Shown here one piece after another: positions 1,534 through 43,652 of a DNA stretch of 64,000 nucleotides; within the stretch, counting starts at the first letter, position 1; each line of letters starts with the position of its first letter. The stretch is from Candidatus Woesearchaeota archaeon. Lineage in GTDB: Archaea > Nanobdellota > Nanobdellia > Woesearchaeales > UBA11576. The notes below the pieces were generated by a model. That model did no database searches. It had not been told where the DNA came from and worked only from the letters and a program-made list of their open reading frames with translations. Position numbers and translations under genes: made by a program. The stretch covers positions 308,232-372,231 of the forward strand of contig JABGYH010000007.1 of the NCBI GenBank assembly GCA_018675335.1. Reading direction: 5' to 3'.

Positions 1534-2880
1534 TTAATTAGAATCGTGTTTAATAGGCATTGCATCTTCAGGAACACTCATCCCTTCAGAAGAAGAATCG
1601 TTTTTATTAGATTCGGATTTTTCAGTATTTTCTGACTCACTATTTTTTGACTCTTTTTTTTGAGAATCATTTTCGCCATCATTTTGATTCGAATTAGTTT
1701 GTGCAGGATCTTGTGCTAGTTCTTGTTCTGGACGTTCAGTTGCCTTAACACTTTCTCCCTCGATAAAATCTTCAAGTTCCGGATGAAGATTTCGATCCTC
1801 AAAAATATCATCTTTAACAACAACATCTTTTTTAACTGGTAAATCTTTATGAGTTTCTAGTAGTTGATCTGCAAGTTCTTTTGCGTGATCTGAATTATTT
1901 TTTTCTAAATCCTCTTCGAGTAATTTTGCTGATCCATCAACTTCAGAGTTAGACTTATCTGATTCGAAACCATTATTTGAGTTAGAATCAGCTTCATTTC
2001 CAGACGTAGATTCGCCCCCTGCTACTTCAACAGACTCAGCCTCTTGGTTTTCAGATTGTGAAGGAATAGGTACAACATCCAAATCTCCAATTTTTTCAGC
2101 AGGTTCTTGTGCTTTATTTTTGCCAGAATCATCATCAGAAATTATTTGTACTTTTTCTAAAGGAACTGCAGAGTCATATGTTTCAAGAGATCCAACTTTT
2201 TCACCCTCTACGTTATCTTTTTTTGTTGTGTCACCCAATTTATCTAGATTCGCATCTTGATTTTTGGTGTCAATTATTTTTTCTGGATCTTGTGGAAGTG
2301 CTAATTGAGCTTGAGATGAACCATCAAGTTTATTCTCGTAATCTTCCACTTTCTTTTGTGGAAGGACATTTTTTAAATCTGCAAAATCTTTGAATACTTC
2401 TTTAATTGCTTTTTTATGAGGTAGATCGAAATAATCCAAAAACTTTTGAGTGGTTTTGAGAAGATAAGATCTCCCTTGACGTTCTTTAGACAGAAATCCT
2501 TGCTCAACTAAATCTTTAATATGTTCATATGCTTTATTAGATCTAATATTTACTACTTCTGCTTGCAAAATTGGTTGTTTCCACGCAACAATTGCTAATG
2601 TTTCAAGAATTGCTTTAGACATTTCAGTGTGAGGATTAATACTATGAACAATTCCCAAATATTTTTCGCGAACTATTAATTTCCAACCATCTCCCTCTTC
2701 TATAAGACTTATAGGTGAATTTCGAGTTTTATAATCTGATTTGATGTCATTTACGGTTTCTTTTACTAATCCGTCTTCTTTAATGTCTAATAAAAGTTTA
2801 ATTTCAGTTAAAGTAATTACTCTACCACTAGAAAAAAGAATTGCTTCAATTTCATTTTTTAATTCTGAAAATTCAGCCAT
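1534..2880 (-). CDS. scpB: Segregation and condensation protein B (ScpB)-like, with a long acidic C-terminal tail
   Basis: N-terminus EIEAILFSSGRVITLTEI…; two winged-helix-like halves (…LAIVAWKQPILQAEVVNIRS…EQGFL), then a roughly 250-aa D/E/S/N-rich low-complexity tail. Confidence 0.65.
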   Translation of the reverse strand: MAEFSELKNEIEAILFSSGRVITLTEIKLLLDIKEDGLVKETVNDIKSDYKTRNSPISLIEEGDGWKLIVREKYLGIVHSINPHTEMSKAILETLAIVAWKQPILQAEVVNIRSNKAYEHIKDLVEQGFLSKERQGRSYLLKTTQKFLDYFDLPHKKAIKEVFKDFADLKNVLPQKKVEDYENKLDGSSQAQLALPQDPEKIIDTKNQDANLDKLGDTTKKDNVEGEKVGSLETYDSAVPLEKVQIISDDDSGKNKAQEPAEKIGDLDVVPIPSQSENQEAESVEVAGGESTSGNEADSNSNNGFESDKSNSEVDGSAKLLEEDLEKNNSDHAKELADQLLETHKDLPVKKDVVVKDDIFEDRNLHPELEDFIEGESVKATERPEQELAQDPAQTNSNQNDGENDSQKKESKNSESENTEKSESNKNDSSSEGMSVPEDAMPIKHDSN

Positions 2881-3189: not shown

Positions 3190-3870
3190 TTACTTCTTAC
3201 CTAATTTAAGCATTGAAGAGTAAACATCTCCCTTTTTTTCAATAACTTTCTCTTTTACTAATTGACCTAAAAAGTTTTCAATTTTATCTGCCGGAATACC
3301 CACATTTTTAGAAATTTGTTCAAGAGATAACTCTTTGTTTTGAAGTGAAAAAACAATAAAATTTCGAACTAAATTAATACTGTTTTTATCCATAAGTTTA
3401 ACGTGCGCAGACATTTCTTTTACTCTCATATCTGCAAAGTGAAGTCTTGCTATAAGATCTAACATTAAATCTGACAAATCTTTTGCACCAATCATTGATT
3501 CTGTTGGTTCTAAAACATCAATAGACGATGGAGTGAAATCAAAAACAAAACTTAACAAATCTTTAGGAGATTTAACCCAGAATTCTACTTCCGCAAATGC
3601 AGTCAACAATTTCTCATTATCTTTAACAGGTGTTGCTTCAAACGATTCTTCAAATGTCACTTCTAAATATTTTTCTTCATTAACTTTATCTAGAACTCCA
3701 TCCAATGTTTTCTCAACATATTCTTTAGGCGCACCTAAAACCTCAATTAAAGCTTTTACCAATAACTCGCCTTTAGCCATCCTTTCTTTAGGAGACATAA
3801 CTGGAGCTTCTTCCTCTTCTACTGCTTCAGATTTATTTTTTTTACGCTTAGTTGATTCTTTAATTGCCAT
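3190..3870 (-). CDS. Hypothetical protein with C-terminal winged-helix; possible kleisin (ScpA-like) partner encoded upstream of scpB
   Basis: C-terminal wHTH-like segment (ELSLEQISKNVGIPADKIENFLGQLVKEKVIEKK). The position immediately upstream of scpB on the same strand mirrors bacterial scpA-scpB order. Sequence similarity to ScpA is weak. Confidence 0.3.
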   Translation of the reverse strand: MAIKESTKRKKNKSEAVEEEEAPVMSPKERMAKGELLVKALIEVLGAPKEYVEKTLDGVLDKVNEEKYLEVTFEESFEATPVKDNEKLLTAFAEVEFWVKSPKDLLSFVFDFTPSSIDVLEPTESMIGAKDLSDLMLDLIARLHFADMRVKEMSAHVKLMDKNSINLVRNFIVFSLQNKELSLEQISKNVGIPADKIENFLGQLVKEKVIEKKGDVYSSMLKLGKK

Positions 3871-3987: not shown

Positions 3988-5217
3988 TTAAAGTTTTTTG
4001 AAAATGAGTAAAACTAAAAGAACTGCAAATAATAAAATGAATATAAAAACTAGAAGAGATCTTGCTTTGGCAGAACTTGATCTATAACTGTCAGATGAGT
4101 TCATTTTTGAAAAATTTGCAGGAAATTTTGATTTAAAATCAATAATATGTTGATCTAAATTTAACGAATTATTTAATTTATTTAACGAATTATTTGTTGG
4201 AATTACAATTAACTCTTTAGTTAACAAATAAGGTGTTTTTCTATTTGATGAATTAATAACAATTCTTAACTTAAACATTCCGGCTTTTATAACTGAATTA
4301 TTAAGAGTAAAAGATACATTTGAAAATTTAGGCAAAATTAAATCTTTACGATTATCTGTTTTTTTACCTTGCGAATAATGTTTGCTACTTTTAAAAACAT
4401 AAGAATATACGGAAAATATCAAATCCTCATCTCGAAAATTTTGAGCAGAAATATTAATTGTAAATGACTGATTGACAAATACTTTTGATGGTGCTGAAAT
4501 AATTGAAAAGTTCAAATTAGTTGATTTTGTGTTTGTTTTTTTAGGAGAGGGTATTGATTTTTGTGTTGAAGTGATCGATTGAGAGTTAATTGATTGATTT
4601 ATGAACTGAGCATTACAATCCCCGTTAGCACTCCCCTCATCATAGACCTCACATTCCTCAGAATTATTCAAATCACATTCTTTTAAGACATCTAACTCTG
4701 CTAACTCCAATTTCACGTCGAGATCAAACCCCGTAATTCGTAAAAAAACTGATTGATTTTTAGCAAGACAACTTAAATAAAAAGGAAAATTAATAGTTTT
4801 GGAATGATTTGAAAATTTATTTTGAAATTTTTCTTTTTTTGTAGGAGTTAATTTTTTTAGTTTCGAATCTAACAAATCAAAATACAATGTAGTCTTTCTA
4901 GAATCTAATTTAACAAACAAGTAATCAACCAATAACTCATTCGCATTAGTGTTTTTTGAAATATTAATAATATTTATTCGTGCTTGATCATTTTCCCCAG
5001 AAAATAACACTTTTTGTGGAATTTGATATATATTTTGAGACGAATCACCCATATTGCTTTCACCCACTAATAATTTTAGACTAATTTCATTTTCAGGATT
5101 GTTAATTTGATATTTGGCGATGTTAATTATTGAAGCAGTATCGCCACCAGAGAATATTATAACCACGATTAACAAAAATATTTTTAAACACAATTTTAAA
5201 AAAATATTAGTCTGCAT
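3988..5217 (-). CDS. Secreted, membrane-anchored surface protein (N-terminal signal or TM, N/S/T-rich, C-terminal TM anchor)
   Basis: Hydrophobic N-terminus (IFLLIVVIIFSGG), many N-x-S/T sequons, C-terminal TM (LLVFIFILLFAVLLVLLIF) followed by KKL. Confidence 0.5.
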   Translation of the reverse strand: MQTNIFLKLCLKIFLLIVVIIFSGGDTASIINIAKYQINNPENEISLKLLVGESNMGDSSQNIYQIPQKVLFSGENDQARINIINISKNTNANELLVDYLFVKLDSRKTTLYFDLLDSKLKKLTPTKKEKFQNKFSNHSKTINFPFYLSCLAKNQSVFLRITGFDLDVKLELAELDVLKECDLNNSEECEVYDEGSANGDCNAQFINQSINSQSITSTQKSIPSPKKTNTKSTNLNFSIISAPSKVFVNQSFTINISAQNFRDEDLIFSVYSYVFKSSKHYSQGKKTDNRKDLILPKFSNVSFTLNNSVIKAGMFKLRIVINSSNRKTPYLLTKELIVIPTNNSLNKLNNSLNLDQHIIDFKSKFPANFSKMNSSDSYRSSSAKARSLLVFIFILLFAVLLVLLIFKKL

Positions 5218-5406
5218 GTGTTACTAGCGAAGAAATTATTTAATTAATTTTTACTGGAAAAAACCGTAAAAAGAATTAACTTAGTCGGAAAAACTAATTT
5301 TATTGCTACTTCAAAGTTTGTTACCATTATAGAATACTCGATAAAGTTTTAATACTAAGCAAGGATAAAGTATTTAAACGTAACTATATGTTGTCGTGGG
5401 GGTAAC

Positions 5407-6288
5407 ATGTCTTTTTTGGAATCAATTAAAAATAAATCTAACAATGGAGAACCTGAATTAGATTTGCCACCATTACCAACAGAAGATGAATTTAATTCTC
5501 AAGATTTTTCCCAAGAACTTAATCAGTTCCCACAAGACAATATGAATCCAACTAACACTCAACAAACAACAGTACCCGAGTTAGATAATCAAGGACTTCC
5601 TCCATTACCTCAACAAGTTCAATTTCCCACTCAACCTAATGCAGGACATGATATGAGCACAATTCCACCACTAGACTTAGGTAATAAAAAATTTCCCATC
5701 CCCCCTCCAAACGAAAATTCACTTCCAAAATTACCACCAATTAATCCTATGAACGCGTCCTCTGCAGTCGCACCCCAACCAATACAACAATATCCGCAAC
5801 CAGGACAGATTGGAAATTCTCCTGTTGAAAATACTAACAATTACCCACCTACACAACCTATGCCACAACCAAACTCACAAAATCAAGTCACTCAAATTCC
5901 CGAAGTTCCCGATCTCGACGATCTTCCAGAACCAGTTTCACAGTCAACACGTCAAGAAAATTCACAAACCAACTTTAACTCTAATTCGCAAATTCCAAAA
6001 TCAGTACCTTCTCTTGAAGGATTTCCAAACATATACGAAGAAATTAATCAAATGCCACAGTCACAAAGAATGGCATCAGGACCAGTTTTTGTTTTACTTG
6101 ACGATTATCGAAACATACTAGATAATTTTAATCAAATCAAAATTAAATTTAAAGAAGAAGAAACAAAATTTACTGCAATCAATAATATCAAAATTAAAAA
6201 AGAAATAAAACTCGAAGCATTTAGAGAAACCATCGAGGACATACAGCGAAAATTATTATTTATAGATAAAGTCCTATTTGAAGGATAA
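5407..6288 (+). CDS. Pro/Gln/Asn-rich low-complexity protein with a C-terminal coiled-coil module (PVFVLLDDYRNILDN…)
   Basis: About 200 aa of P/Q/N-rich disordered sequence followed by a charged helical C-terminus. The C-terminal module is paralogous to the next two genes. Confidence 0.5.
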   Translation: MSFLESIKNKSNNGEPELDLPPLPTEDEFNSQDFSQELNQFPQDNMNPTNTQQTTVPELDNQGLPPLPQQVQFPTQPNAGHDMSTIPPLDLGNKKFPIPPPNENSLPKLPPINPMNASSAVAPQPIQQYPQPGQIGNSPVENTNNYPPTQPMPQPNSQNQVTQIPEVPDLDDLPEPVSQSTRQENSQTNFNSNSQIPKSVPSLEGFPNIYEEINQMPQSQRMASGPVFVLLDDYRNILDNFNQIKIKFKEEETKFTAINNIKIKKEIKLEAFRETIEDIQRKLLFIDKVLFEG

Positions 6289-6298
6289 AGAGGTAAAA

Positions 6299-6529
6299 AT
6301 GGAACGAAGTGCACCAGTATTTGTAAAAATAGATGAATACAAAGACGTCTTAGACATAATTGATTTAGTTAAAAATAAAATCGGTGAAGCAAAACATCTT
6401 ATCAACCAAATCAATGAAATAAAAAATCAAGAAGATACTGAACTTGAAATGTGGTATAATGAAATTAATGACATTGAAAGAAAAGTAGACTATGTGGATA
6501 AAACACTAGTTAAACCTGAAAATACATAA
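6299..6529 (+). CDS. Small coiled-coil protein (PVFVKIDEYKDVLDIIDLV… module)
   Basis: ATG at 6299 is preceded by a GAGGT SD-like motif. Shares the PVFV(K/L)(I/L)D(E/D)Y(K/R)(D/N)(V/I)LD module with the C-terminus of the upstream gene. The track start at 6278 overlaps the upstream gene. Confidence 0.5.
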   Translation: MERSAPVFVKIDEYKDVLDIIDLVKNKIGEAKHLINQINEIKNQEDTELEMWYNEINDIERKVDYVDKTLVKPENT

Positions 6530-6531
6530 AA

Positions 6532-6873
6532 ATGGCAGAAGGAGAATTTTTTGTACAAATACCTGACGGCACAGAAGTGCGACGAATCTTACTTGAAGAT
6601 AGCAAACAAATAATTCAAATTCTACAAAGATACGAACAATTTAAAGCACATAGAATCCACAAACAAGAACTCATTAGCAAACTCCGCGATATAAATCAAT
6701 CAATTCAAGTTTTATTACAAAAATTAGAAGAAGAAATGCCAAAAACAAATATGCGTGTAAAATTAACCAAACGAAAAAAAGAACCAATTAGAAGTCAAAA
6801 AACAAAAGAATTACAACAATTAGAACAATCACTTGCAGACATAGAACGAAAGATCTCATCTGTACGAAAATAA
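6532..6873 (+). CDS. Small coiled-coil protein, probable third paralogue (EFFVQIPDGTEVRRILLEDSKQIIQIL…)
   Basis: Starts 3 nt after the previous stop; heptad-like charged helical sequence; loosely shares the N-terminal module. Confidence 0.45.
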   Translation: MAEGEFFVQIPDGTEVRRILLEDSKQIIQILQRYEQFKAHRIHKQELISKLRDINQSIQVLLQKLEEEMPKTNMRVKLTKRKKEPIRSQKTKELQQLEQSLADIERKISSVRK

Positions 6874-11194: not shown

Positions 11195-12472
11195 TCAGAT
11201 ATTGTTGATGACCATTCCTTTAAATTCATTAGACAACATTTCTTCTGCTCGCTTAGTTAACTTTCCCGACGTAACAAAAAGAACAGGTAACTTTTTTAAT
11301 TGTCCTTGAACAAACGCTGAACTTAAATCACCATCATTAATTGTTTTTTTTGATTTAGCTTTACAATAAAAACTAATAACTCCTACTGGACTTGGAACAT
11401 CAAGTACCAAATCAAGTTCAGAATTTTTTCGAATAATTTTTATGTCAATAAGTTTAATATCATTTGATTTTAAAAATGAACTTATTTGAGACCCGAACTC
11501 ATCATCAGGAATTTGAGGAAGTGGTTTTTCAAAAGTTTTTTGCGTTTCATTAGAAATTGATTCAAGTTTTGATTTTTTAGGTTTTGGTTTATCCCTCGAT
11601 ATTTCTTTAATTTGAGAAATTTCTTTTCTTAAGTCTGAGATGATAGATTTTTGTTGATTGATAAGATCATTTCTATGTTTTAAAAGAGATTGTTCTAATT
11701 CTAAAATTGTTTGATGATCATTAAGTTGAGCTTTAGATGGTACTTCACTATCACTCGTTGTTGAAGGAACCTGACTTTTTTGAGTTAATACTTCAGGCTC
11801 CACATTTGGTTGCGCATTAGGTCGGGGTGATTCAACTGGCGTTGGTTGTGCAGGATGAGTTTGAGTAATTGGTTTTTGAGTTGGTTGTATGTGCTCCGCT
11901 GCAATTGAATTAGAATTTTCTTTTTGAACCTGAGTGTTTTGCGATTGAACTTGATTATTTTCAGGAACATCTGCTTTTGGAACTTCATCTACTTTTTCAA
12001 CTTCAGGTGCAGACTTATCTTCAATTCCCAATAATTTTTTAATAAAAACCGAACTCTCATCATTTGATAACAAATACCATTTCCAAAAAATTTCAGTAGA
12101 ATTATTATGCGAAACTTCTAACGGAATTGCAAAGTCTTTAATTTCTCTTAAACTAACTCGCACCAAAGGAGTCTGAGTTGAATCTTGAAGAATCTTTTTA
12201 GATTTTAATAAATCAAAAGTATCACGATCTTTTGCATTAAGTTTATTTGAAAAATTTTGAAGAAGATGTTCTTGACCTGGCTTAAAATACAAAGGAGACC
12301 CCCCAAATTTCAAATTTGAAAGCTTTAAAATTTTATTATCAACAAGCTCGGATAACATAGCTGATGTAAACAGAATATTTAGATTTAATTCCTTATTAAT
12401 ATTTGATGGAATAACTGGGCCTTTAATACTTATTAACTGAAGGATCTTAGACTGGTTATCTGGAGCTGCCAT
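11195..12472 (-). CDS. Hypothetical protein: N-terminal winged-helix-like domain, P/Q-rich linker, C-terminal restriction-endonuclease-like (PD-(D/E)xK-like) domain
   Basis: C-terminal segment ELDLVLDVPSPVGVISFYCKAKSKK resembles the D…(D/E)xK core of Hjc-like nucleases. The middle ~120 aa is Q/P/S-rich. Confidence 0.4.
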   Translation of the reverse strand: MAAPDNQSKILQLISIKGPVIPSNINKELNLNILFTSAMLSELVDNKILKLSNLKFGGSPLYFKPGQEHLLQNFSNKLNAKDRDTFDLLKSKKILQDSTQTPLVRVSLREIKDFAIPLEVSHNNSTEIFWKWYLLSNDESSVFIKKLLGIEDKSAPEVEKVDEVPKADVPENNQVQSQNTQVQKENSNSIAAEHIQPTQKPITQTHPAQPTPVESPRPNAQPNVEPEVLTQKSQVPSTTSDSEVPSKAQLNDHQTILELEQSLLKHRNDLINQQKSIISDLRKEISQIKEISRDKPKPKKSKLESISNETQKTFEKPLPQIPDDEFGSQISSFLKSNDIKLIDIKIIRKNSELDLVLDVPSPVGVISFYCKAKSKKTINDGDLSSAFVQGQLKKLPVLFVTSGKLTKRAEEMLSNEFKGMVINNI

Positions 12473-13262: not shown

Positions 13263-13690
13263 ATTACAAACTCAATCGTACTCGATTATTAAAAAAAACT
13301 CAAAACAAAAATAAAATGCAACTAACATTTTTAGGCACCAACTGGTTACGCTCAGCTTGACACGCAACACCCAGTACGATTTCGCAAACTCAATCGTACT
13401 CGATTATTAAAAAAAACTCAAAACAAAAATAAAATGCAACTAACATTTTTGGGCACCAACTGGTTACGCTCAGCTTGACACGCAACATCCAGTACGATTT
13501 CATAAATTCAATCGTACGCAATTTTAAAAAAAAACTCAAAACAAAAACAAAATGCAACTAACATTTTTGGGCACCAACTGGTTACGCTCAGCTTGACACG
13601 CAACATCCAGTACGATTTCATAAACTCAATCGTACGCAATTTTAAAAAAAAACTCAAAACAAAAACAAAATGCAACTAACATTTTTAGGC
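13263..13690. repeat. 118-bp tandem repeat x ~3.6, each unit containing a TATA-like box and the first 27 nt of the RNase Z gene
   Basis: ATG of the repeated unit sits at 13316, 13434, 13552 and 13670 (period exactly 118). The first three copies continue caccaactggttacgctcagcTTGA (a 14-aa uORF). The fourth copy continues into the real rnz ORF. Confidence 0.9.
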
Positions 13691-14578
13691 ACTAGTGCCA
13701 TGGTTCCAACAAAGGAACGAAATGTATCAGGGATTTTTCTAGATTACAAAACAGAAGGAATACTATTTGATTGCGGAGAAGGAACGCAAAGACAGATGAA
13801 TATAACTGGAATAAAAAGATCAAAGGTTACAAAAATACTAATCAGCCATTGGCATGGAGATCACGTTTCAGGAATTATTGGCCTCATCCAAACAATGGGT
13901 TCAGATCAAGTAACTCACACAGTAAGAATATATGGCCCAACAGAAACTAAAAAAAGAGTTGAACATATGATGCAAACTTGCATATTTGATCAAAAAATAG
14001 AAATTGAAGTGATGGAACTTGAACCTGTGGGAACAGAAGTATTAAGATTTTTTGAAAACGAAAATTATGCACTAGAATGTGCTGCTCTTGATCATAAACT
14101 ACCTTGCATAGGATTTAATTTTATTCAAAAAGATCAGCTTAATGTGAGCATGGCAAAAATTAGCAAATTAGGACTGAGTGAAGGCCCATACTTAAGACAA
14201 ATTAAAGAAGGAAAAGATGTTACTGTAAACGGAATTAAAGTTCTTTGTAAAGATGTAACGTATCTTAAACCAGGAAAAAAAATAAGTTATGTTGCAGATA
14301 CTCAAACTTGCGAAGGTGCACTGAGACTCGCCGAAAATGCAGACATACTAATAAGTGAATGCGTTTATGCCTCATCAACACACCAAGAAAAAGCAGAACA
14401 ATACAAACACATGAGCGCAAAAGATGCAGCAATGCTTGCAAATCGGGCAGAAGCAAAAAAATTAATACTCACACACTTTTCTCAAAGATACAAAAACACA
14501 CAAGACATAGAAGAAGAAGCTAGCATGTACTTTGATAATGTAATTTGTGCAGAAGATTTTATGAAAATAAAAATTTAA
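13670..14578 (+). CDS. rnz: Ribonuclease Z (tRNA 3' endonuclease), metallo-beta-lactamase fold
   Basis: MQLTFLGTSAMVP…; HxHxDH (ISHWHGDHVSGI); C-terminal …LILTHFSQRY. Confidence 0.85.
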   Translation: MQLTFLGTSAMVPTKERNVSGIFLDYKTEGILFDCGEGTQRQMNITGIKRSKVTKILISHWHGDHVSGIIGLIQTMGSDQVTHTVRIYGPTETKKRVEHMMQTCIFDQKIEIEVMELEPVGTEVLRFFENENYALECAALDHKLPCIGFNFIQKDQLNVSMAKISKLGLSEGPYLRQIKEGKDVTVNGIKVLCKDVTYLKPGKKISYVADTQTCEGALRLAENADILISECVYASSTHQEKAEQYKHMSAKDAAMLANRAEAKKLILTHFSQRYKNTQDIEEEASMYFDNVICAEDFMKIKI

Positions 14579-17116: not shown

Positions 17117-17229
17117 AGCCCTTGGTGAGAGTTGAACTCACGACCTGCTGCTAACTCAAATAAACACATTTTACAAGTTCTGTGTTAGGATATACGAGGC
17201 AGCCGCTCCAGCCACTAAGCTACAAGGGC
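17117..17229 (-). tRNA. tRNA-Thr(CGU) with a ~40-nt canonical-position intron
   Basis: Reverse complement gives acceptor GCCCTTG/CAAGGGC; D-arm GCTT-AGTGGCTG-GAGC; anticodon stem GCTGC/GCAGC with loop CTCGTA|intron|A; variable loop AGGTC; T-arm GTGAG-TTCAACT-CTCAC. BHB 3' half: TGAG helix plus TTA bulge. Confidence 0.7.
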
Positions 17230-20348: not shown

Positions 20349-22082
20349 TTAATCTATCTTCTCAAGCACTTGCGCCGCTAAATCCTCAGTCCAACCTTTT
20401 CTAATTAAACCTTGTCTAATTTGCTCTTTTGAATATCCTTTCTTCGAAAGTGCTTTAATTGATGCGATTGCAGCTGAAAGCCGCGTATCTTCCTCATGCA
20501 GTTTATTCTTCTCCATATGAGTATCAACCGCAGTAATATGAGTGAAAACATCATCTAACAATTCATTAGACCAACCTTTTTTTGAAAGAACATTTCTAAC
20601 TTCCTCACCCGTAAAGCCATTAGCAAGCGCATGATAAATATACCTTTCCACTGCCATTTCTTTTTCTTTTGATAGAGTTAATTTAGGCTTAGGTTTTGGT
20701 TGCACTACTGGTTTTTCTTCTTGGGTAAAAGGTAGGACAGGTTCAGAGATCTCTTTAGGTGATTCTCCAAGACCTGCCCTGGTTGTTGTTGGGGGTTTTC
20801 CCATAGGCAATTGATAACGGAAAACCGCAATACCACCTATGAGAAGAACTATGATTGACGATGCAATAATCCACGTCCACAAACTAATTGGAGACTTCGG
20901 AGGTGTTGGTGATTCTACAACAGGTTCGGGCGTCGCCTTAATATTTGCCCAACCACTTTCAGTTTTGGTTGTTGCTTGCCCTGTTACTTCAGTTGTTATT
21001 TGAGACTCAACTTTAGGATTTGTTTGAGGAGGAGTTACTTTCTTCTTAGGCGGCAATAAATTAGGCATAGCATAAGATTTTTTCTCAGGATATAATTTAA
21101 AACTCATTATAACAAAACCATCAGCAAGCTCTATATTGATCACAATGTCATCTGAAAATAATTCTGCTAAACCAACAGTTTTTTGCTCTCCTAATTTAAC
21201 TGTGTATGAATAAGGAGTTCCAGTTCTTTTGATGGTTGCTTGTAAATTACCAACTTCAGTAACATCAAAAGGATACTCTAACCCATTAAACAAAATAGTA
21301 AGTTTGTCATTTTTTCTAAGTTTTGCAGTAACACCTTGATCGGTTGGGATAACTACAATAGATGAGGGACTAGATGAAGAAGATCCGCCTCCGCCGCCAC
21401 CACCTGTGTTCCCACCCGCAGAACAATCGTTGCAAATACCACCACAATCAGTTCCAGTTTCAGATCCATCTTTTTTATTATTATTACACATATCTTCCGC
21501 AACAAAAAATGCAGAAAATTGAGTGATTCCCGTAATTGTAATCATGCCAGTATTAGAATCAAAGGATAAATCAGTACCATGAGTTTCGACATTCCTAGTC
21601 ATATTTGGAATTCCAGCATCAAAATCATAAGGCGTGTGAATAACCACCGGAGTAGTTAATGAATCTAACTCTGAAGCATTATAATAAATTGTAAAAGTAT
21701 TATTAACTCCATTTTGTTTTACTTCAAACGCATGCACTGCTAAAACTTCATATTCTGCACCCGAAGTATTAAATGAAGTATTAACATAAGTAAAATCATC
21801 TATGTCTAAAGACCTTGAACTAATATTAACAACAGTTGTTGGTTGAAACGTTGTTGAAATTACTTTAAATTTCTCATCCAACGATGCAATCTCTGCAGTT
21901 AAAATAGTGTCAGGCAAATCTACCTGTTGCGTAGAATTAAATGACTGATTATTATGTAATTCAATTTCGCCCAAACTATAAATCAAACTAACATTTTCTT
22001 TGTTTGTTGCAGAAACAAAACTAAATGAAAATAAAACTAACAAAAACAAAATACAAAATTTGAATAAGTTTTTAGTTCTCAT
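20349..22082 (-). CDS. Single-pass surface protein: signal peptide, extracellular domain with a Cys/Asp-rich motif and poly-Gly/Ser linker, TM helix, cytoplasmic tail with two ~35-aa repeats
   Basis: Signal FCILFLLVLFSFSFVSA; DMCNNNKKDGSETGTDCGGICNDC; GGNTGGGGGGGSSSSS; TM LWTWIIASSIIVLLIGGIAVF; tail repeats …SKKGWSNELLDDVF… and …IRKGWTEDLAAQVL…. Starts 2 nt after the giant gene. Confidence 0.55.
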   Translation of the reverse strand: MRTKNLFKFCILFLLVLFSFSFVSATNKENVSLIYSLGEIELHNNQSFNSTQQVDLPDTILTAEIASLDEKFKVISTTFQPTTVVNISSRSLDIDDFTYVNTSFNTSGAEYEVLAVHAFEVKQNGVNNTFTIYYNASELDSLTTPVVIHTPYDFDAGIPNMTRNVETHGTDLSFDSNTGMITITGITQFSAFFVAEDMCNNNKKDGSETGTDCGGICNDCSAGGNTGGGGGGGSSSSSPSSIVVIPTDQGVTAKLRKNDKLTILFNGLEYPFDVTEVGNLQATIKRTGTPYSYTVKLGEQKTVGLAELFSDDIVINIELADGFVIMSFKLYPEKKSYAMPNLLPPKKKVTPPQTNPKVESQITTEVTGQATTKTESGWANIKATPEPVVESPTPPKSPISLWTWIIASSIIVLLIGGIAVFRYQLPMGKPPTTTRAGLGESPKEISEPVLPFTQEEKPVVQPKPKPKLTLSKEKEMAVERYIYHALANGFTGEEVRNVLSKKGWSNELLDDVFTHITAVDTHMEKNKLHEEDTRLSAAIASIKALSKKGYSKEQIRQGLIRKGWTEDLAAQVLEKID

Positions 22083-22083
22083 T

Positions 22084-25000
22084 TTAGTTTACGTTAACAT
22101 TCTGTTCTACTTTTTCGAAAGAGGAAAACACATTCAAGTAGGATTCATCAAATAAATTAGATTCATTGTCAGATGCATTTATGAAAATACTATAAGTTCC
22201 ATTCTGACTAACCTCATCAAAACTAAGATTATAATCTCCCTCTATATCTGCATCACTAATCGCAGGTATAAAATCATCAGCTTCATATTGAGATAAAGAT
22301 CCATTAGGAAGAATAAATGTTAAATTAAATGAATCAATATTATTTTTAGACGATAATGTAAGTGCAACATCTATCCCGCTATCATTAAACGTCCAACCAG
22401 ACCCGAAGGAAATATTATCAATGAAAATAAAATCTTCTAGTGCATGGAAAGTTGCAATATCAGGATCACCATAAGTTCCTAAATTATCCACACAAGAAAT
22501 ATTTAATACCGTTTCTCCTTGAGATACATTAATTGTAGTATCATTCCCTAACGTGTTCAGATACGTTTTATTTACGACACCGTCAAGATAAATGGTACAG
22601 TTAGCAAGTTCATCCACTGTGAAATTTAAAGGAATTTCTAACGACTCATAAACTCCCCCATTAACAGGAGAATATAAATCAACTCCTGGAGTTGAAACAT
22701 TTAGTTGAACTACAACAGGCGTTGAATTTTTATAATTCAAACCATCAAATGCGCTTATTTTAATTCCGAAATAATCAACATTGTAACTTGAATTTATCCA
22801 CTGATACCAATTATTGGTTGTGTTGGCCACATTAGTAAATGAAGTAATATCTTGAGACGAATCAAATCCAAAATACACATGATACTCTAAAGATTCATTA
22901 TCTATATCTTCTGCAGCATCCCAAGTAATATTAATTGAGCCACCATATTCCTCCCCTGATGATGGATAAGTTATTACTGGCGCTATGTGAGGCATATCAT
23001 TAAATGCAGTAACATTTAAAGTTATATCTGGAGACCACTCTGAAACATTAATTAAATCGCCAGCCCTAAATGAAATTGTTGGCAAAATTTCATCCTCACT
23101 ATTAGAATAATTTGCAGGAGGAGTTATGTTAACAATTCCAGTAGAGTCATTAATTACAACAGTAAAATTACTATTAGATAAATTATATTCATAAGTTAAG
23201 TTATCCAAATCTACATCGAAAAATTCTTCAGATAAATTAATACTTATATTAGATACATCTTCAGTCAGAGACATATTATCAATTTGACCTCCAAAGTAAG
23301 GAGCATCATTAACAGGGATTATTGATATGTTAATCTGAGTTTCAAACCCAATTAAATAGCTATCAACAACATTAATAATTAAAGTAATGTTTTCAACATA
23401 ATCATTACCTAAAGTAATATTATATTCTCCAGTTGTGCTATTAATTAACTCAACAGTTAAAGTTTCATCTAATAACTCAATAGGATCTGGCACAACATCA
23501 TAAGTTAAATTATCACTTGTTGGATCAATATCTTCATCAGGATCAATAAAAAAATCATCTAACGTAATTGTACCAGACAAGTCTTCGAGTATACTAATAA
23601 TGCCTGCACCCATAAATATTGGAGGTGTGCTTTCAATAAAAATTGAACTAGGTAATTCAGTTGAATCATTATTACCATCAACTGCAACAACTGACCAATT
23701 TAAAGTTTTATTAATGAACTTGTGTAAATCAACAACCTCAAAAGTATAAATCCCACTATCTAAGTAATGTGTTGAATTCTGAGTTTCGTTAACACTAGAT
23801 ACTTTAGAAACAATCGTTCCATTAGGATACTCAAATGAAATATTTACTAAACTTAGCGTTTCATCAGTAATATTTACTGAAAGATAAATACTATCACTAG
23901 CAACCACTGTCGTTAAAATAGCATCACCTGAAACATTCATTGTTTGATTTTGTGCAATGATCGGACTTGAATGATCAATATAAACTTCCCTACTTTCAGG
24001 ATTGGTTTCAGCAGGACCCGCACCATTCTCACCATTTAATTGAATAACATATTCTCCTTCAGCCCAATCACCAACATAAATTAAATCAGTGTAATTATGA
24101 TCTTCTGCATACACAGTTTCTTGAGTTTCTTTAAATTTAATTAAACCTTGCGAATCATAAATAGTAAAAGAACTATTGATTGCATTTGTAACTTGAAACC
24201 CTGAATCAATATTAGTTTCGTTGTATATGTGCCCACTCTCAATAAAAGAGCTATTTGTATCATTAATCCCAAATATTAATTGCGGAGCTCTTTTATCAAC
24301 TGTAAAATTAATAAATGATTGATTAGTGTTATTGAATTCATCTTTTGCAGTCACAATAAAAGTTAAATTCGTTACATTATTTTCAATATCTGAAAAATCT
24401 AGTAAAATATCTCCATTGGAAGGTAAACTTCCAGTCATATTATCATAAGTTATATTTGTATTATTAGCATACTTAACTTGATATGTTCTCTCAGTAATTG
24501 CATTATTATCAGTAATTGTTGTTTGAAATTCCACTACTCCCGAAATAATATCATCCTGGTCAGGGAAAACAAATTCTACCGAGGGATTAGTTCTATCAAG
24601 TTCAAACTGTCTTGTAGTTGAGTAAACACAAGAATTGTTAGCAACAGCATTATCGCAAGCAACAACTCTCCAATAATAAGTTCCATCCTCAGAGTTTGAT
24701 GTATCAACTTCAAAAGTTTCAGCAGTAGCCCCAGTTGGTTCGCTGATAAAAATAGAAGTTGGAAGTTTCAAATCACGTTCATAAATCCAAATTTTAGATC
24801 CGTTAGTTGCAACTACAATATTATCACTAAATCCATAATCAGTAACTGAATCTGATTCGTCAATTAACTGATTGTTGTTTTGATTTATAAAAAAACCATC
24901 CAAACTGTTATTTATTGAATAATCTCCAAAATAACTATTTTCAAAATTTTCTTCAGGATACGAAATAAAACTATTATTATTTCCAAAATAAACTGCAGTT

Positions 25001-28000
25001 CCACCATTATTATCAGAATAACTGGATACAACTATTGGGAAAACTGACAAATTGTCGCCAGCATAATCCAGTTTCATAGATAACTTAGATTCTGAATCCG
25101 CTAAACTTAAGATTTCACCAGATTTATTAGACTGCAAATCATGCATCCAAACAGAGCTGCCATCACCCCAAATAAAAGACCCTCCTTTAACAGAAACTGC
25201 ATCAGCACCATAAACCCCATTTATCATAACTAATTCTAAGGAATCTAATTTAAAATTAAATATTCCTGAATCATTTACATAAATTAAATTATTCCCCTCA
25301 ACATCATAAGTGTTTGATTTAAAATCAGTTACTACCTCTGATCTTTTTGAAGTTGTTAAATCATAACTTAATAAATCCTTTTGCGCACCATTTGTTTTTT
25401 GATAATAAATTTTATTTTTGTAGATTTTAGGCATTGTTTCTGCAGATGTTGTTGTTGTTATTTGAGCAGTATTATTAGTCACAATATTTCTTGAAAAAAT
25501 GTTCCAATCACCCGACCTATTATCAGCCCAAACAATAATATCTCCAAAAACATCTGGATCTGCAATAGTTGCAACGGACGGCGTTAAAATTTCATATCTT
25601 GAAAAATTATTCAACTCATTATCCGAATAATTAAAACTAGTTTCATTATCAATTTCAATTGAGTAAATAAAATAATCATCATCAAGGTCACTTGTTAAAT
25701 TCCAAGATAAAATAATATCTGAATTAGTTTTAGTATTGTTTGAAACTCCAATTAATTCAGGAATTGCTGGAGCACTATTTGAAACTCTAACATAACCTGA
25801 CGAACTATTAGTTCTTTCTGTCTCATCAGCAATATTTACAGCACATGAAAGAGTTGAATCGCGAGTTATTGAATATTCTGATAAATTCAATTCAGCAGAA
25901 GTAAAATTTCCTGAAAGGAATAAATTTGTGGAATTCTCAAAGTTTACTCCGTCGTCAAACCACTGAAACAATGCCGAATCAACATTATTATCTTGATCCG
26001 TATAATTTGCAGAACAAAACGCAATTGAATCTGCATAAACAAATTCGCCGTCTGAATTATTAACAGTTACGTTAAATACTTGAGGGGCATCTGGCCAATT
26101 AATTATAAAATTAACATTAGTATTTTGAGTATGATCTTGAGCAACTCCCTGACTATCCCTACAAGAAATATACCAAGTAAAATTACCTTGACCACCAGTT
26201 GAAATTTCGCCACCAACATTAAACCTATTTACAGTCGTATTAGTACAAGAATAATTAGTTAAAGTAAAATTATCACATTCTTGAATATTTTCATTACTAC
26301 TATACCCAATATCAACATAAGTTAAAACACATTCACTAGCTTCTTCTGCATTGAAATTAATAGTAACATCTTTATCAGTTTCATTTACAAAAATCCAACC
26401 ATCGCCAGGATTTGAATCATCATTAATTTGATAAACTTCCGGTGCGGTTGGTGCAGAATTATCAATATAAATAATACCATTTGAATAAGTTGAAGCATTA
26501 GGATTATTAAAACCATTATAGGGAGTTATTTTAAAGTAATATTTAATTTGATTATCTAAACTAAGTCCACTAACTGAAACTTCAGAATTAGTAACATTAC
26601 CACTTGCACCACTTACTGCCGGACAACTATTAGGAATATCTCCACCACACTGATCATCCTCAGGATTGTACTGCAAAATTTCCCAAGCATAATGATCTAT
26701 ACCCGTTTCAGGATCAGAACTTGGAGTCCAACTAGCATGCAAATATGAACTATCAAAAGTTTGGAAACCTTGATCAGTAACAGATGAAATTAAAGTAGGC
26801 CCAGTTAAGTCAGATTTCATAACTTTTTGTATTGCCCCCGAATCATATACTTTTAAGTTACCTGCACCATCATAAACATGAAGTTTGAACGCATGACACT
26901 TACCAGAAATTAAATTCACATCTTCAATTGATTCGGCAAGACCATTACTAGGAGTAAGATAATGAATCAAATTAAAATCATAAATTGGAGGGCAAGTATT
27001 ATTAAGACCTACAGGTAATGAAGACGTTCCCATCCACAAAGAAACATTTTTGATTCCTGCAACCGAATTACTGGGCGTATCTAAACCATTATCTAAACCA
27101 GATCCATTATCCCCCCCCGAATTATAAAAAATATCCACGCTTTCAATATCATAATCGCCTCCCACATAAGAAATCGCACCACCAACTGGCTCTGTGAAAT
27201 CAGTAGTTATTCCTGCAGATGAAAAAAACTCAGACCAACCACTACTATAGTTAGAAAAACTATTTCCACTTTTTGCTCTAACATTAAAATAATATTTTAC
27301 TCCTTCTTCCAAAATTAAATTTGAAACTAAAACTGAGGTTTGACTTGTTTGCGTGAGCGGATGAACTGAATCAAAGCTTGCTTCCCATTCATTAGTTCCA
27401 GTTCCGATTGAATACTCATACCCAATAATTTCAGACTCTGCATCAGTAAAATTCCATGAAGCATTTAAGGATGATTGTGAATTTGCCCAAGCAGATGCGC
27501 CTTGTGACACGCAATTCCCCTCACAAGCAGGAGCACTATCATCAATATACAAAATACCATCACTAGAAACTGGCGCACTTGTAGCTCCAGCCAAATTAAC
27601 TGCCCTAACATTAAAATAATAAACTTCATTAGTTAAAAAAGTAAAATTATAAGCTGATTCTATTTCTGAACCCGTATGAGTTATGTTAATTTCTTTAGTT
27701 TGTTTTGATATATTAACCCAATTTAATTTATCAACAAGACTTGGATCTTTACCAACTGAAACTTGATAATAATCTAAATCAGTATCTTCACTCCCACTAG
27801 CTAAAGTCCAATTAGCCCAAATCCAATTTTTACTAGTCACATCCCAATTATTATAGTCTCTAACCCAACCAATACTGACATTAGTTAGTATAACATTAAT
27901 TTCAGTCACATTAATTTTTTCAGTACCAATATAATCCGATACATTAAACTTAACATTATTTGTTCCATTAAATAAAACCAAAGTAACATTACATGAATAA

Positions 28001-31000
28001 TATGAAGTATTGATTTCAGAACACAAAATATTATCTTCAAATTCAGACATATTTAATCCCAAAGAATCATTAACTGATTCAGGACTAACTGCATGAATAC
28101 TAAAGTTATCATCTTTTGACGCATTAATCCACAATGAAGAAATATTTACTTCATTATTATCAGATACGTTAAACTCAATAAAAGTTTCAGTTGATGCAGA
28201 AACATTTGAAATTTCACCCAAATAAAAAACAGGAGCGTCACCTGCATCATAATAAACGTATTGTGAAATTGATTTGTATCCTTCAGTTTCGTTTTTAACT
28301 CCCACTGCATAAATTTCATTAGTTTGATTGGCAGTTAAATTTCCAGAAATATTAATTGATACATTAAAAAATCCATGCCTCCACTCTGCGCTATGAATTA
28401 CCATATCCGCAGACGTTGTTACCGAACTTTCTAATGTAGGATCGAGTATTATTCTAGGATCTTCTCCAGGATTATCTTCTATTTCAGTTACATTATATCT
28501 TTGCCAATAAGTTCTATCATGATTTGAAAACTCAACCCAATAATTTGCCCACGCAGATTCGCTAATATCTAATGAGTCATATTCTGCTTGAGAAACAAAA
28601 ACATAAGATGCACCTTCTGCATGATTTGAACTAATGTTTAATACACCTAATTGATTTGAAGTATTATTTACATCTTGAGATAATAATGATACTTCATTAT
28701 CCTCATCTTTGATTACAACAGTAATATTTAAATGGGTTAAGCTTTCTTCGTCAATATACCCAATAACATTAAAATCTTCATTTTCTACACTAGGCAAATC
28801 CCACAATTTAGGAATTGCTTCAACAGGACCTGTTGGATGATTAATAAAATCATCAGTAGCACTACCAGAATTTCCTTTCTTATCCGTACCCCAAACAGAG
28901 ATTCTATTAACGCCACCATACAAAGAAACATTAGCTTGGAAATGTCCTGAAGGATACTCTGTCGAATACAAAGTAACTTGTGTTCCCACAGGAATAATTG
29001 ATTCTAAATTATCTGTAAAATTAACTCTAATATCATTACCCGTTCTATTAGCCTGATCAATTGCATATCTTTGGAAATAAGTCTTATCATGATTTGAAAA
29101 TGTAACATAATCATATGTCAAAAATGCGTCTTCACGCTCAGCAGTCCATTCAACCAACACAACATTTTGACCTTCTTCAGCATGATAATTTAAGGTAATA
29201 CTTTCACCTTCATATGTTGAATAAATTTCTGAATTTGTTTGAGTATCAACACTAAACTCATAATTTTCATCCTCATCAACTCTTAAAATAACAATTGTTG
29301 ATTCAATATCAGACTCATCATAATAACCCGCAACAACTGTTGTAGAATTATCAGATTGATTTGTTGGATGCAACCAAATTTGTTTATACAAAATAGGTGC
29401 AATAGGTGCAGTTACATCATCAACAAGAGTAAACGTCGAAGATAACGATTGATTCTCAAATTTATTTGAAGTACAATTAATATTATAATTATACACTCCT
29501 GGAGCAGTAAAATTTGTAACAGAATTATTAAATTTGTAAACTCCAAAATTTGAATCATAAATCATAGGCGTATTTGAAATTTTAGATAATCCATTCCAAG
29601 ATTGAGAAATTGAAATTGTACAACTACCATTATTAGTTGATGCAAAATCATCTCCTCCTGTTTGATCATTTATTGATTGTCCTGAAAGATCATTACCTTG
29701 ATCAGTTATGAAAAACTTAGTATAGTTTGCATAAAACCAAATACGATGATAAGTTTCTAAAGTACCATTTTCAGTATAAGTATTAATTTTACTATTATTA
29801 GTAGTTGAATAATTTGAAAATGAATTAACTTGAGTTGAAAAAATTCCATTCGTGTAATTTCTTGAACTGCTCGGACAAATTGAGTTATTACATAAAACTC
29901 CATTCCTAAGTAAAGCAGGAATTTGTTCGTAGGAAAGATTTGTTAAATTTAATTGAACTTGTTTGTTTGCTAAGTTGTATAACAAAACAGAATCCACACT
30001 AATTGAATTTTGTTCAATTGTAGCATAATTAAGATTCATTTTTTTAAAATTAATTGTTTCAAGGAATTCAATTGAACCGTAAGTGTTTTCCAATAAAACA
30101 TTTTCTGCAGAGTCTAATTCATCAATCAACGTAAAATTATAAGTATACTCTGCTTGATTAAATCCTTCCCCACAATCAGGTTCATCCCAACCAATATCCC
30201 CATCACAATCCCAATCAATAAGTCTATCTGCAAGATCAGTACAATGATCAACAGAAGAGTTTGAATGATTTAATGCGCCCGGATTTACCGCAGGATTATT
30301 ATCATTACAATCTTGAGGAATAAAATAAGAATCGTTATCATAATCAGTTGCCTTACTTACATTAAAAAAATCACTCTGATTAGTAAAACCAATAACTCCA
30401 TATGCTAACGGAGTAACATTATAATAAAACGACGTATTTTGCGGATCACCATAAGTAATTTGGTTATACGGAGTCCACTCAAAATAATTATTTACTTCAG
30501 TATCTGTTAAAGTAACCGAACCATAAAAAGTACCTTCAACACCAGTATCATTTTTGTAAAGATCAACCTGATACGTAATTGCATCAAAATTACCAACAGA
30601 ATTCCAAGTTAAATTAACAACATCCTCACTAGTTTCAAACGCAGCATCAATTGGAGGAGACGTTTTCAAACCACATTCAGTATCAGGAATAGTTGCACCT
30701 GCCGGATGAAAATTACCTGTGTTGTTTTGGCAAAAAGTGTTGTTTGTTAAATAGTCTTCACCAATTCCTTTCAAAAATAAATTGTTTGAAACTAAATTTC
30801 CCTCATTATTCTCAATAAATGCAAGATCATTTCCTGAACTATTAAAATAATTATTATAAATAATATTAGAACTGGATACTACACCAATTCCCGAAATAGT
30901 CGAGTTTATGAATGAATTATTTTCAATTAAACTCAAATTTGAATCAAGATAAATACCATATGATGAACCAGATATTGAATTATTAATAATTGAAATATTA

Positions 31001-43527: not shown

Positions 43528-43652
43528 GGTGGAGTCGCCAAGCCCGGTAAGGCGTTCGGCTGCAATAATTGGGATGATGAGCAACCAAAAATCATGGTTG
43601 TAATGATCTAGCAGATCCCGATCATTCGAGGGTTCAAATCCCTCCTCCACCT
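43528..43652 (+). tRNA. tRNA-Cys(GCA) with ~51-nt canonical-position intron
   Basis: Acceptor GGTGGAG/CTCCACC with discriminator U; D-arm GCC-AAGCCCGGTAA-GGC; anticodon arm TTCGG-CTGCAA|intron|C-CCGAT; T-arm GAGGG-TTCAAAT-CCCTC. BHB 3' half: GCAG helix plus ATC bulge. Confidence 0.6.

Follow-up and report, generated by a model that had tools for sequence, protein, structure and literature searches.

Three adjacent genes on the plus strand (positions 5407–6873) of a 64,000-nucleotide stretch of DNA from a Candidatus Woesearchaeota archaeon (hereafter the window) may encode a membrane-tethered heteromeric coiled-coil scaffold specific to Woesearchaeota/Nanoarchaeota-type DPANN archaea, a reading to which we assign a probability of about 0.4. 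The genes are tightly packed, the C-terminus of the first protein (P1) is related to the entire second protein (P2), and both are conserved as a trio together with the third (P3). Their products carry conserved motifs, are predicted to form single helices, show fixed rod lengths, and match no known family. From these features we infer membrane binding, hetero-assembly, and a cellular role. Co-assembly and membrane attachment are proposed because the genes are co-conserved, matched indel-free rods stand beside linkers of varying length, hydrophobic residues occupy e/g heptad positions, and the N-terminus of P1 resembles that of SepF. A role in cell division or at the chromosome would be the weakest step of the argument, being favored because of the analogy to SepF, ZipA, and CdpC and the linkage to an ScpB gene pair.

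P1 (5407–6288, 293 amino acids (aa)) is composed of an N-terminal hydrophobic-basic block, a conserved proline motif, a linker rich in P/Q/N, and, at the C-terminus, a strand-plus-helix module. P2 (6299–6529) represents a lone module, in which a PVFVKIDEYKD strand is followed by a helix at residues 11–70, and P3 (6532–6873, 113 aa) combines an FFVQI strand with a helix at residues 13–68, a disordered basic linker (69–86), and a zipper (87–112). A preceding reading of the sequence without database searches (the sequence-only reading) had placed the three open reading frames (ORFs) correctly but counted 77 aa for the middle protein, which has 76 aa from its ATG. This length equals that of the P2 homologs, the mechanical ORF call beginning at a TTG farther upstream, and P2 shares 100% identity with “hypothetical protein HN587_05905” of a Candidatus Woesearchaeota archaeon. 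The tight packing of the genes was recovered, with measured gaps of 10 nucleotides (nt) between P1 and P2 and 2 nt between P2 and P3. A TATA-like box (TATTTAAA, 5371–5378, plus strand) located ~29 nt 5′ of the P1 ATG is a candidate operon promoter, and a T5 run 3′ of P3 (6928–6932, plus strand) possibly serves as an archaeal oligo-T terminator. Since reading of the sequence revealed no signals comparable to this box or the T5 run between P1, P2, and P3, the trio is regarded as a putative single operon.

The P1 C-terminal module (P1C; residues 222–293, 6070–6285, plus strand) comprises a GPVFV strand, a heptad helix of ~60 residues, and a DKVLFEG end. BLASTP with compositional adjustment aligned P1 residues ~224–291 with P2 residues 4–71 at 38% identity over 68 residues without gaps (E = 6e-15). 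A hidden Markov model (HMM) built from P2 orthologs alone was then scored on the last 85 residues of 66 P1 orthologs, resulting in 15.4–72.7 bits (median 48.9), while reversed P1 tails reached at most 14.9 and shuffled ones at most 15.0 bits. Because both control sets score below the real tails, the likeness cannot be attributed to a K/E/I bias, the low-complexity explanation that had been named as a possible pitfall when the paralogy was initially suggested. These sequence comparisons identify P2 as a true paralog of the P1 C-terminus. Best matches stay within their own group for 63 of 66 P1C and all 70 P2 sequences, thus the duplication predates the sampled diversity. The profile of the joint family consists of a P-V-F-V-K-I-D-E-Y-K strand motif followed by an indel-free helix of ~60 residues, which is marked by E45-D46, W52, and D67-K-x-L-F; invariant residues of P2 are P6, V9, Y14, K27, and D67. 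Both P2 and P1 222–293 of the window fit this profile.

AlphaFold2 models built with family alignments predicted a single helix for P2 (residues 11–70, predicted local distance difference test (pLDDT) score of 88) and, for P3, a helix at 13–68 and another at 87–112, separated by a segment of low confidence (pLDDT 84). The hydrophobicity of the P1C/P2 family runs as a 3-4-3-4 heptad without interruption between Y14 and L70, with a polar KN-ED stretch in the middle of the helix and additional hydrophobic e/g positions toward its N-terminus; the latter suggest a bundle of more than two helices. Helical oligomerization modules with heptads, as anticipated by the sequence-only reading, are thereby supported at the level of structure prediction and family profile. 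In all three proteins a short hydrophobic strand-like motif and a D/P turn precede the helix (PVFVKI, GPVFVLL, and FFVQI). The rods are of fixed length: the V of VFV and the D of DKxLF lie 58 residues apart in both P2 and P1C, without indels, and the V of FFV and the P of LP(K)T 62 residues apart in 58 of 61 P3 orthologs. The disordered linkers vary in length, spanning 53–331 aa in P1 and 18–85 aa in P3.

With respect to P3, the family shows a conserved LP(K)T that ends the first helix, a Lys-rich linker whose net charge is at least +3 in 53 of 61 orthologs, and a C-terminal zipper (6790–6867, plus strand) of three heptads with the family consensus tELekLE.ELa.IEeKLgsL. Among PDB entries, designed peptides that form antiparallel coiled coils (9i5e, 7a48) match this zipper, which is therefore considered a canonical a/d heptad. 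Two P3 homologs (P0257 and P0219) match C2H2 zinc-finger Pfam models, the finger of P0257 (YTCTVCGMEF...HKKIAH) being inserted within an otherwise disordered linker. The looser paralogy that had been proposed for the 113-aa protein was not confirmed. Comparison of the P2 and P3 families by hhalign gave a probability of 8.8%, restricted to the last 27 columns, and P3 sequences scored a median of 5.1 bits against the P1C/P2 HMM, with reversed P3 sequences at 5.9 bits, ruling out P3 as a demonstrable P2 paralog. P3 thus matches P1C/P2 in architecture, with one heptad helix of roughly 56–60 residues after the short strand, and in rod length, without detectable common ancestry.

The N-terminal part of P1 provides the candidate membrane contact. 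Residues 1–12 (MSFLESIKNKSN, 5407–5442, plus strand) form a putative membrane-targeting block with the consensus M-G-(F/L)-(L/F)-x-F-(L/F)-K-K-K. Within the 66 orthologs, the alignment columns read M, G (36/66), F/L, L/F, x, F, L/F, and K-K-K-(K/R), and ~14 apparent exceptions all contain the block once an upstream GTG or TTG start is allowed; by sequence, this MG(L/F)FxFLKKK block appears nearly universal in the P1 family. It resembles the SepF membrane peptide of M. smithii (MGFTDALKRSLGF; compare the P1 start of a related locus, L002, MGFTDLFKKKRE), which binds vesicles in experiments (PMC8178401). A classical amphipathic helix is unsupported, the hydrophobic moment being no higher than that of shuffled sequences; consequently, we term the block a hydrophobic patch plus polybasic run, with only ~4 hydrophobic residues ahead of the latter. 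Residues 17–25 (ELDLPPLPT; 5455–5481, plus strand) represent a short linear motif of the type (D/E)-L-(D/E)-hydrophobic-P-P-x-P-P. Within the first 80 residues, hydrophobic-PPxP(P) occurs in 61 of 66 P1 orthologs at a median position of 20. The variable disordered linker follows (5482–6069, plus strand), being P/Q/N-rich here and P/E-rich across the family, where it contains 20% Pro and shows no conservation in the alignment. The P/Q/N-rich disordered arm described in the sequence-only reading is real, as residues 13–215 consist of 19% Pro, 13% Gln, and 12% Asn (44% in sum). That reading had overlooked the N-terminal block, the LDΦPPxPP motif (Φ, hydrophobic), and the variable length of the linker, which together make P1 look like a membrane tether. 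After start-codon correction, P1 orthologs are 140–418 aa long.

Extension of the analysis toward related genomes revealed the trio as a conserved unit. A word-indexed search with P2 retrieved 56 homologs of 72–86 aa, all unannotated. An exhaustive search with the module profile against 1.84 billion cluster representatives (clusters at 50% identity) returned 3224 matches at E ≤ 1e-3, of which 1003 also passed E ≤ 1e-10; among the 150 matches listed, the proteins were either 71–84 aa long or ~200–293 aa with the module at the extreme C-terminus. Scanning GTDB at one genome per species yielded 69 loci, all within metagenome-assembled genomes (MAGs) of Woesearchaeota, Nanoarchaeota, or Nanobdellota or within MAGs labeled “uncultured Methanosarcinales” having the same synteny. 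Distant members are under-sampled here, since the loci were selected by one peptide pattern alone, VKIDEYK[DE], and the taxonomic range is accordingly provisional. A P1-type gene was located directly 5′ of P2 in 67 of 70 loci and an ORF was called directly 3′ in 64, of which 59 cluster with the P3 of the window. Co-conservation, put forward in the sequence-only reading as a check on the trio, was hence found in the form of a P1–P2–P3 order kept in 64–67 of 70 loci, with exceptions mainly due to contig ends or miscalled start codons. Spacing of the genes is mostly −7 to +14 nt, and order as well as spacing are held across loci of 28–60% guanine-plus-cytosine (G+C) content. For P3, 61 homologs were collected, being unannotated or generically named. 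In one locus (L074), the three genes are still found together in an entirely different neighborhood.

Some taxonomic labels deserve caution. In total 21 loci (L010, L019, L020, L023, L024, and 16 others) are titled “uncultured Methanosarcinales archaeon” and carry a Woesearchaeota-type synteny of ScpB, MJ0538 family, RNase J, and PCNA; the label of these third-party annotation (TPA) assemblies is probably wrong. Likewise, a P1-type member of 204 aa (P0119) was deposited as “SAR324 cluster bacterium”, likely representing a mis-binned contig.

Next, the proteins were examined for membership in known families. Searches of P1, P2, and P3 against Pfam, NCBIfam, PHROG, and PADLOC returned only coiled-coil noise below threshold, besides one RST match of P3 (23.9 bits at a cut-off of 22.7). 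This was treated as chance because RST is a plant domain and was matched in just 3 of 47 P3 members. Pfam scans of 25 P2/P1C and 47 P3 homologs gave no family matched by more than seven members, all of them generic coiled coils. PDB profile searches resulted in no significant match, the P3 tail resembling designed coiled coils, and Foldseek found 0 PDB matches for the P3 model. Literature searches for a description of the family yielded nothing relevant, and cluster look-ups gave uninformative names. As far as the compared libraries and literature show, the P1C/P2 and P3 families are undescribed, in agreement with the statement of the sequence-only reading that the trio matches no known family. 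Prefoldins and ATPase stalk subunits, which had been named there as families to check, were not matched either. Prefoldin (PF02996/PF01920) had no Pfam match to P1–P3 and was not among the 25 most frequently matched families of the 25 P2/P1C and 47 P3 homologs, and the AlphaFold2 helices are single and straight, unlike the pair of coiled-coil helices that beta-hairpins connect in prefoldin. For the peripheral stalk of A/V-type ATPases (E, G/H), Pfam matches were absent from the trio and ATPase subunit genes were absent from the recurring neighbors. ESCRT-III was rejected since no Snf7 match was obtained and P3 was modeled as a straight helix with a tail helix, not as a hairpin. No Pfam similarity was detected to the PspA/ESCRT-III, bactofilin, or DivIVA families.

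Several tethers of known function are built alike. SepF (PF04472) combines a short N-terminal membrane peptide, a flexible linker, and a C-terminal interaction and oligomerization domain, an outline to which P1 would conform with its candidate membrane block. It differs by its alpha/beta core, where P1 has a strand and one long heptad helix; in addition, P1 has two partner genes and a much longer, Pro-rich linker. A SepF core was rejected, as neither P1 and P2 (even at E ≤ 1) nor 25 family members gave a Pfam match, hhalign assigned a probability of 0.4% against the B. subtilis and C. glutamicum cores, and AlphaFold2 predicted a continuous helix. ZipA, the FtsZ tether of Gammaproteobacteria, is anchored by a transmembrane helix and binds FtsZ by a globular domain. 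Its order of anchor, long P/Q-rich flexible linker, and C-terminal binding domain recalls that of P1 with its P/Q/N-rich linker, but P1 has neither a ZipA Pfam match nor a transmembrane helix nor a globular domain. The haloarchaeal FtsZ1 anchor CdpC (HVO_0399) is reported to consist of a membrane-binding N-terminus, a disordered linker that is long and fast-evolving, and a binding domain at the C-terminus, with indispensable zinc fingers in both terminal domains (10.64898/2026.07.16.738847). P1 is similar in its N-terminal block, disordered linker, and conserved termini; small paralogous partner genes as found for P1 are not described for CdpC. Membership was rejected because the P1 of the window contains zero cysteines and hence no zinc finger of the type reported there. 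The Dip system (DipA/DipB/DipC), a divisome-positioning operon of a GTPase, a DUF2073 SepF-like protein, and a Zn-ribbon protein, has been reported within DPANN solely from Nanohalarchaeota (PMC13228585). It shares with the trio the layout of a three-gene archaeal operon having one member with conserved termini and a variable disordered center, but GTPase, DUF2073, and Zn-ribbon domains are all absent from P1–P3. In size (70–130 aa), the predominance of one long helix, and the proposed hetero-oligomer formation, a likeness also exists to ZapA/ZapB and FtsB/FtsL, short heteromeric coiled-coil division proteins of bacteria; the trio has no Pfam match to these and no transmembrane segments. The conserved PVFVKIDEY strand motif is not known to have a counterpart.

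Considering these features together, we propose the following mechanism for the scaffold. The hydrophobic-polybasic block of P1 would bind the membrane, and the (D/E)L(D/E)ΦPPxPP motif and a Pro-rich linker of free length come next, so that P1 would be the flexible tether. The C-terminal module of P1 would join the rod, to which P2 would contribute a tetherless copy of this module and the strand-plus-helix unit of P3 an equally long third rod. The three rods would probably lie side by side and in register, with their N-terminal strands forming a small sheet. By its mostly basic disordered tail and zipper, P3 could reach a further partner, being another complex, DNA, or another protein. Such an assembly would provide scaffolding at the membrane in cell division or chromosome segregation.

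Analysis of the genomic neighborhood, for which all ORFs within 5 kilobases (kb) of the trio were clustered in 66 loci, showed recurring neighbors. A winged helix-turn-helix (wHTH) protein of the MJ0538 family (PF27325) was found in 38 loci, RNase J in 29, ScpB in 27, a membrane protein next to P1 in 26, and PCNA in 18. In the window, ScpB (1534–2880, minus strand; Pfam match 5e-36) lies outside the operon and is divergent from the trio, as is the wHTH protein (3190–3870, minus strand), whose homologs in related loci bear PF27325 matches (e.g., L003 4798–5361 and L075 7862–8461). The MJ0538-family gene lies upstream of scpB; both are on the same strand, divergent from P1, and overlap by a few bases in L003, L075, and L076; in ~14 loci the MJ0538-family gene is ~120 nt from P1, and GyrA is often found beyond the pair. 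This ScpB gene pair is the sole recurring functional neighbor of the trio. The MJ0538-family gene occupies the usual scpA position. Its product has no ScpA Pfam match and no PDB relative, and thus could be another ScpB partner or a divergent kleisin; an identity as ScpA/kleisin was not demonstrable, and a literature search for MJ0538 yielded nothing. Between the MJ0538-family gene and P1, the window additionally encodes a 409-aa protein (3988–5217, minus strand) with hydrophobic N- and C-terminal segments and no Pfam match, with homologs found at this place in 26 of 66 loci.

A number of points weigh against the scaffold and its proposed role. Co-assembly rests on co-conservation and matching rod lengths. 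The likeness to SepF spans only ~10 residues, and the helical hydrophobic moment of P1 residues 2–12 (median 0.26) is not above that of shuffles. Three of 61 P3 orthologs have a strongly acidic linker, speaking against conserved binding of DNA or lipids by this segment. A kleisin identity of the MJ0538-family protein was not demonstrable, the ScpB linkage is absent in L074, and this linkage may represent inherited gene order in one order-level clade. Motif scans found no FtsZ, MinD/ParA, or AAA+ signature within 5 kb of the trio in the 66 loci, nor anywhere in the 64-kb window. The suggestion of a cytoskeletal or division scaffold made in the sequence-only reading therefore stands in part: co-conserved helical modules and a Pro-rich arm are present, whereas the division-related signatures are missing from the vicinity of the trio, so that a role in division is still an inference.

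Within the scaffold reading, we weight an FtsZ-ring function, a chromosome or SMC function, and another membrane role roughly evenly, and each can also be formulated as an explanation of its own. The trio may act as a chromosome-to-membrane tether or SMC-ScpB accessory, with P1 at the membrane and the basic P3 tail, which in some lineages would include a zinc finger, on DNA or on the ScpB/MJ0538-family pair, thereby coupling the nucleoid to the envelope in segregation. The divergent gene pair adjoining the trio, frequently with GyrA beyond, the Lys-rich P3 linker with its positive net charge in most orthologs, and the zinc-finger matches of two P3 homologs are in line with this proposal. We nevertheless consider it unlikely in respect to the loss of linkage in L074, the three acidic P3 linkers, the absence of a conserved DNA-binding domain, and the failure to demonstrate a kleisin. 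Alternatively, the proteins could anchor the FtsZ ring at the membrane or regulate it, in functional analogy to SepF, ZipA, or CdpC, with the rod or the LDΦPPxPP motif as the binding site for FtsZ or SepF. Besides the three-part build of P1 and its SepF-like N-terminal peptide, the report that DPANN archaea divide by FtsZ (PMC7617429) speaks in favor of such an anchor. Its standing is lowered by ftsZ and sepF not being located near the trio in the 66 loci, by the missing SepF core and the cysteine-free P1, and by the report that FtsZ-bearing archaea, including DPANN, already have SepF (PMC8178401), so that we regard an FtsZ-ring anchor as improbable. A general membrane coiled-coil scaffold without a link to division or DNA, contributing to an envelope or cell-contact structure, membrane remodeling, or a stress response, would account for the absence of a functional domain, for neighbors that are ordinary housekeeping genes, and for the membrane protein adjoining P1 in many loci. 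Nothing specific argues in its favor, the PspA/ESCRT-III, bactofilin, and DivIVA families being unmatched in Pfam, and we judge it quite doubtful.

An ESCRT-like recruitment was considered as well, in which the C-terminal helix of P3 (I-E-x-K/R-L-x-x-L) would act as MIM1 and the proline motif of P1 as MIM2 for a MIT-domain ATPase. MIM1 follows the consensus (D/E)xxLxxRLxxL(K/R), and the P3 tail fits LxxRLxxL loosely and at pattern level only, but its generic a/d heptad matches designed coiled coils equally well. Given that an AAA+ Walker A motif is absent within 5 kb in the 66 loci and from the window, that Pfam gives no Snf7 or Vps4 match, and that DPANN are described as FtsZ-based (PMC7617429), this option appears very improbable. 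Finally, AT-rich DNA might give rise to K/E/I-rich ORFs, making the trio non-genes or their likeness spurious. The window has a G+C content of ~30%, and spurious antisense ORFs do occur over P2. Thousands of homologs with invariant residues, order and spacing held over a wide range of base composition, and reversed and shuffled controls that fail to score refute this explanation, to which we ascribe a negligible likelihood.

Apart from the trio, the window contains typical archaeal information-processing genes, namely ScpB, Trm5/Taw2, RNase J, FEN1, tRNA-splicing endonuclease, and Hjc, together with topoisomerase VI, RFC, a RadA-like gene, and aRF1. A 118-bp tandem unit is present in 3.6 copies of 95% identity (13266–13692); it spans the start and first codons of an RNase Z-like gene (13670–14578) and its upstream sequence, and owing to the repeats the minus strand carries 55-aa ORFs that are nearly identical. 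A giant 3581-aa ORF (22084–32832, minus strand) has no Pfam family at E ≤ 1e-4, and a 577-aa ORF directly downstream of it (20349–22082, minus strand) gave a weak RecX helix-turn-helix (HTH) domain as single match. Rfam identified a 113-nt tRNA gene (17117–17229, minus strand) and a 125-nt one (43528–43652, plus strand), both presumably containing introns, whereas ARAGORN called no tRNA across the whole window. A 425-aa protein (11195–12472, minus strand) with a P/Q-rich center, conserved-looking ends, and no Pfam match is another protein of the type with two domains on a disordered linker.

Hardly any DPANN archaea have been cultivated, and homologs of model-organism proteins are the basis from which their cell biology is deduced. 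In this context, the operon is one of the better-conserved sets of genes without annotation that lie close to the core information-processing genes of Woesearchaeota. Naming the P1C/P2 family and providing a profile for it would group thousands of “hypothetical proteins”, and given their small size and soluble appearance, the proteins could be studied in vitro without culturing the organism. The logic of the tether is familiar from known systems, though the sequences are unrelated. Taken one step further, the trio might be a DPANN-specific machine, in which P1 as SepF-style tether and a three-protein coiled-coil rod connect the membrane with either the division ring or the chromosome and its SMC-ScpB system; we put this forward tentatively and consider it, on balance, more doubtful than not. 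If the scaffold reading, including a role in division or chromosome segregation, is true, these reduced genomes would have their own solution to a problem handled elsewhere by SepF, CdpC, or ZipA, and if the rod indeed leads to the division ring or SMC-ScpB, the trio would represent a new lineage-specific component of archaeal division or segregation.

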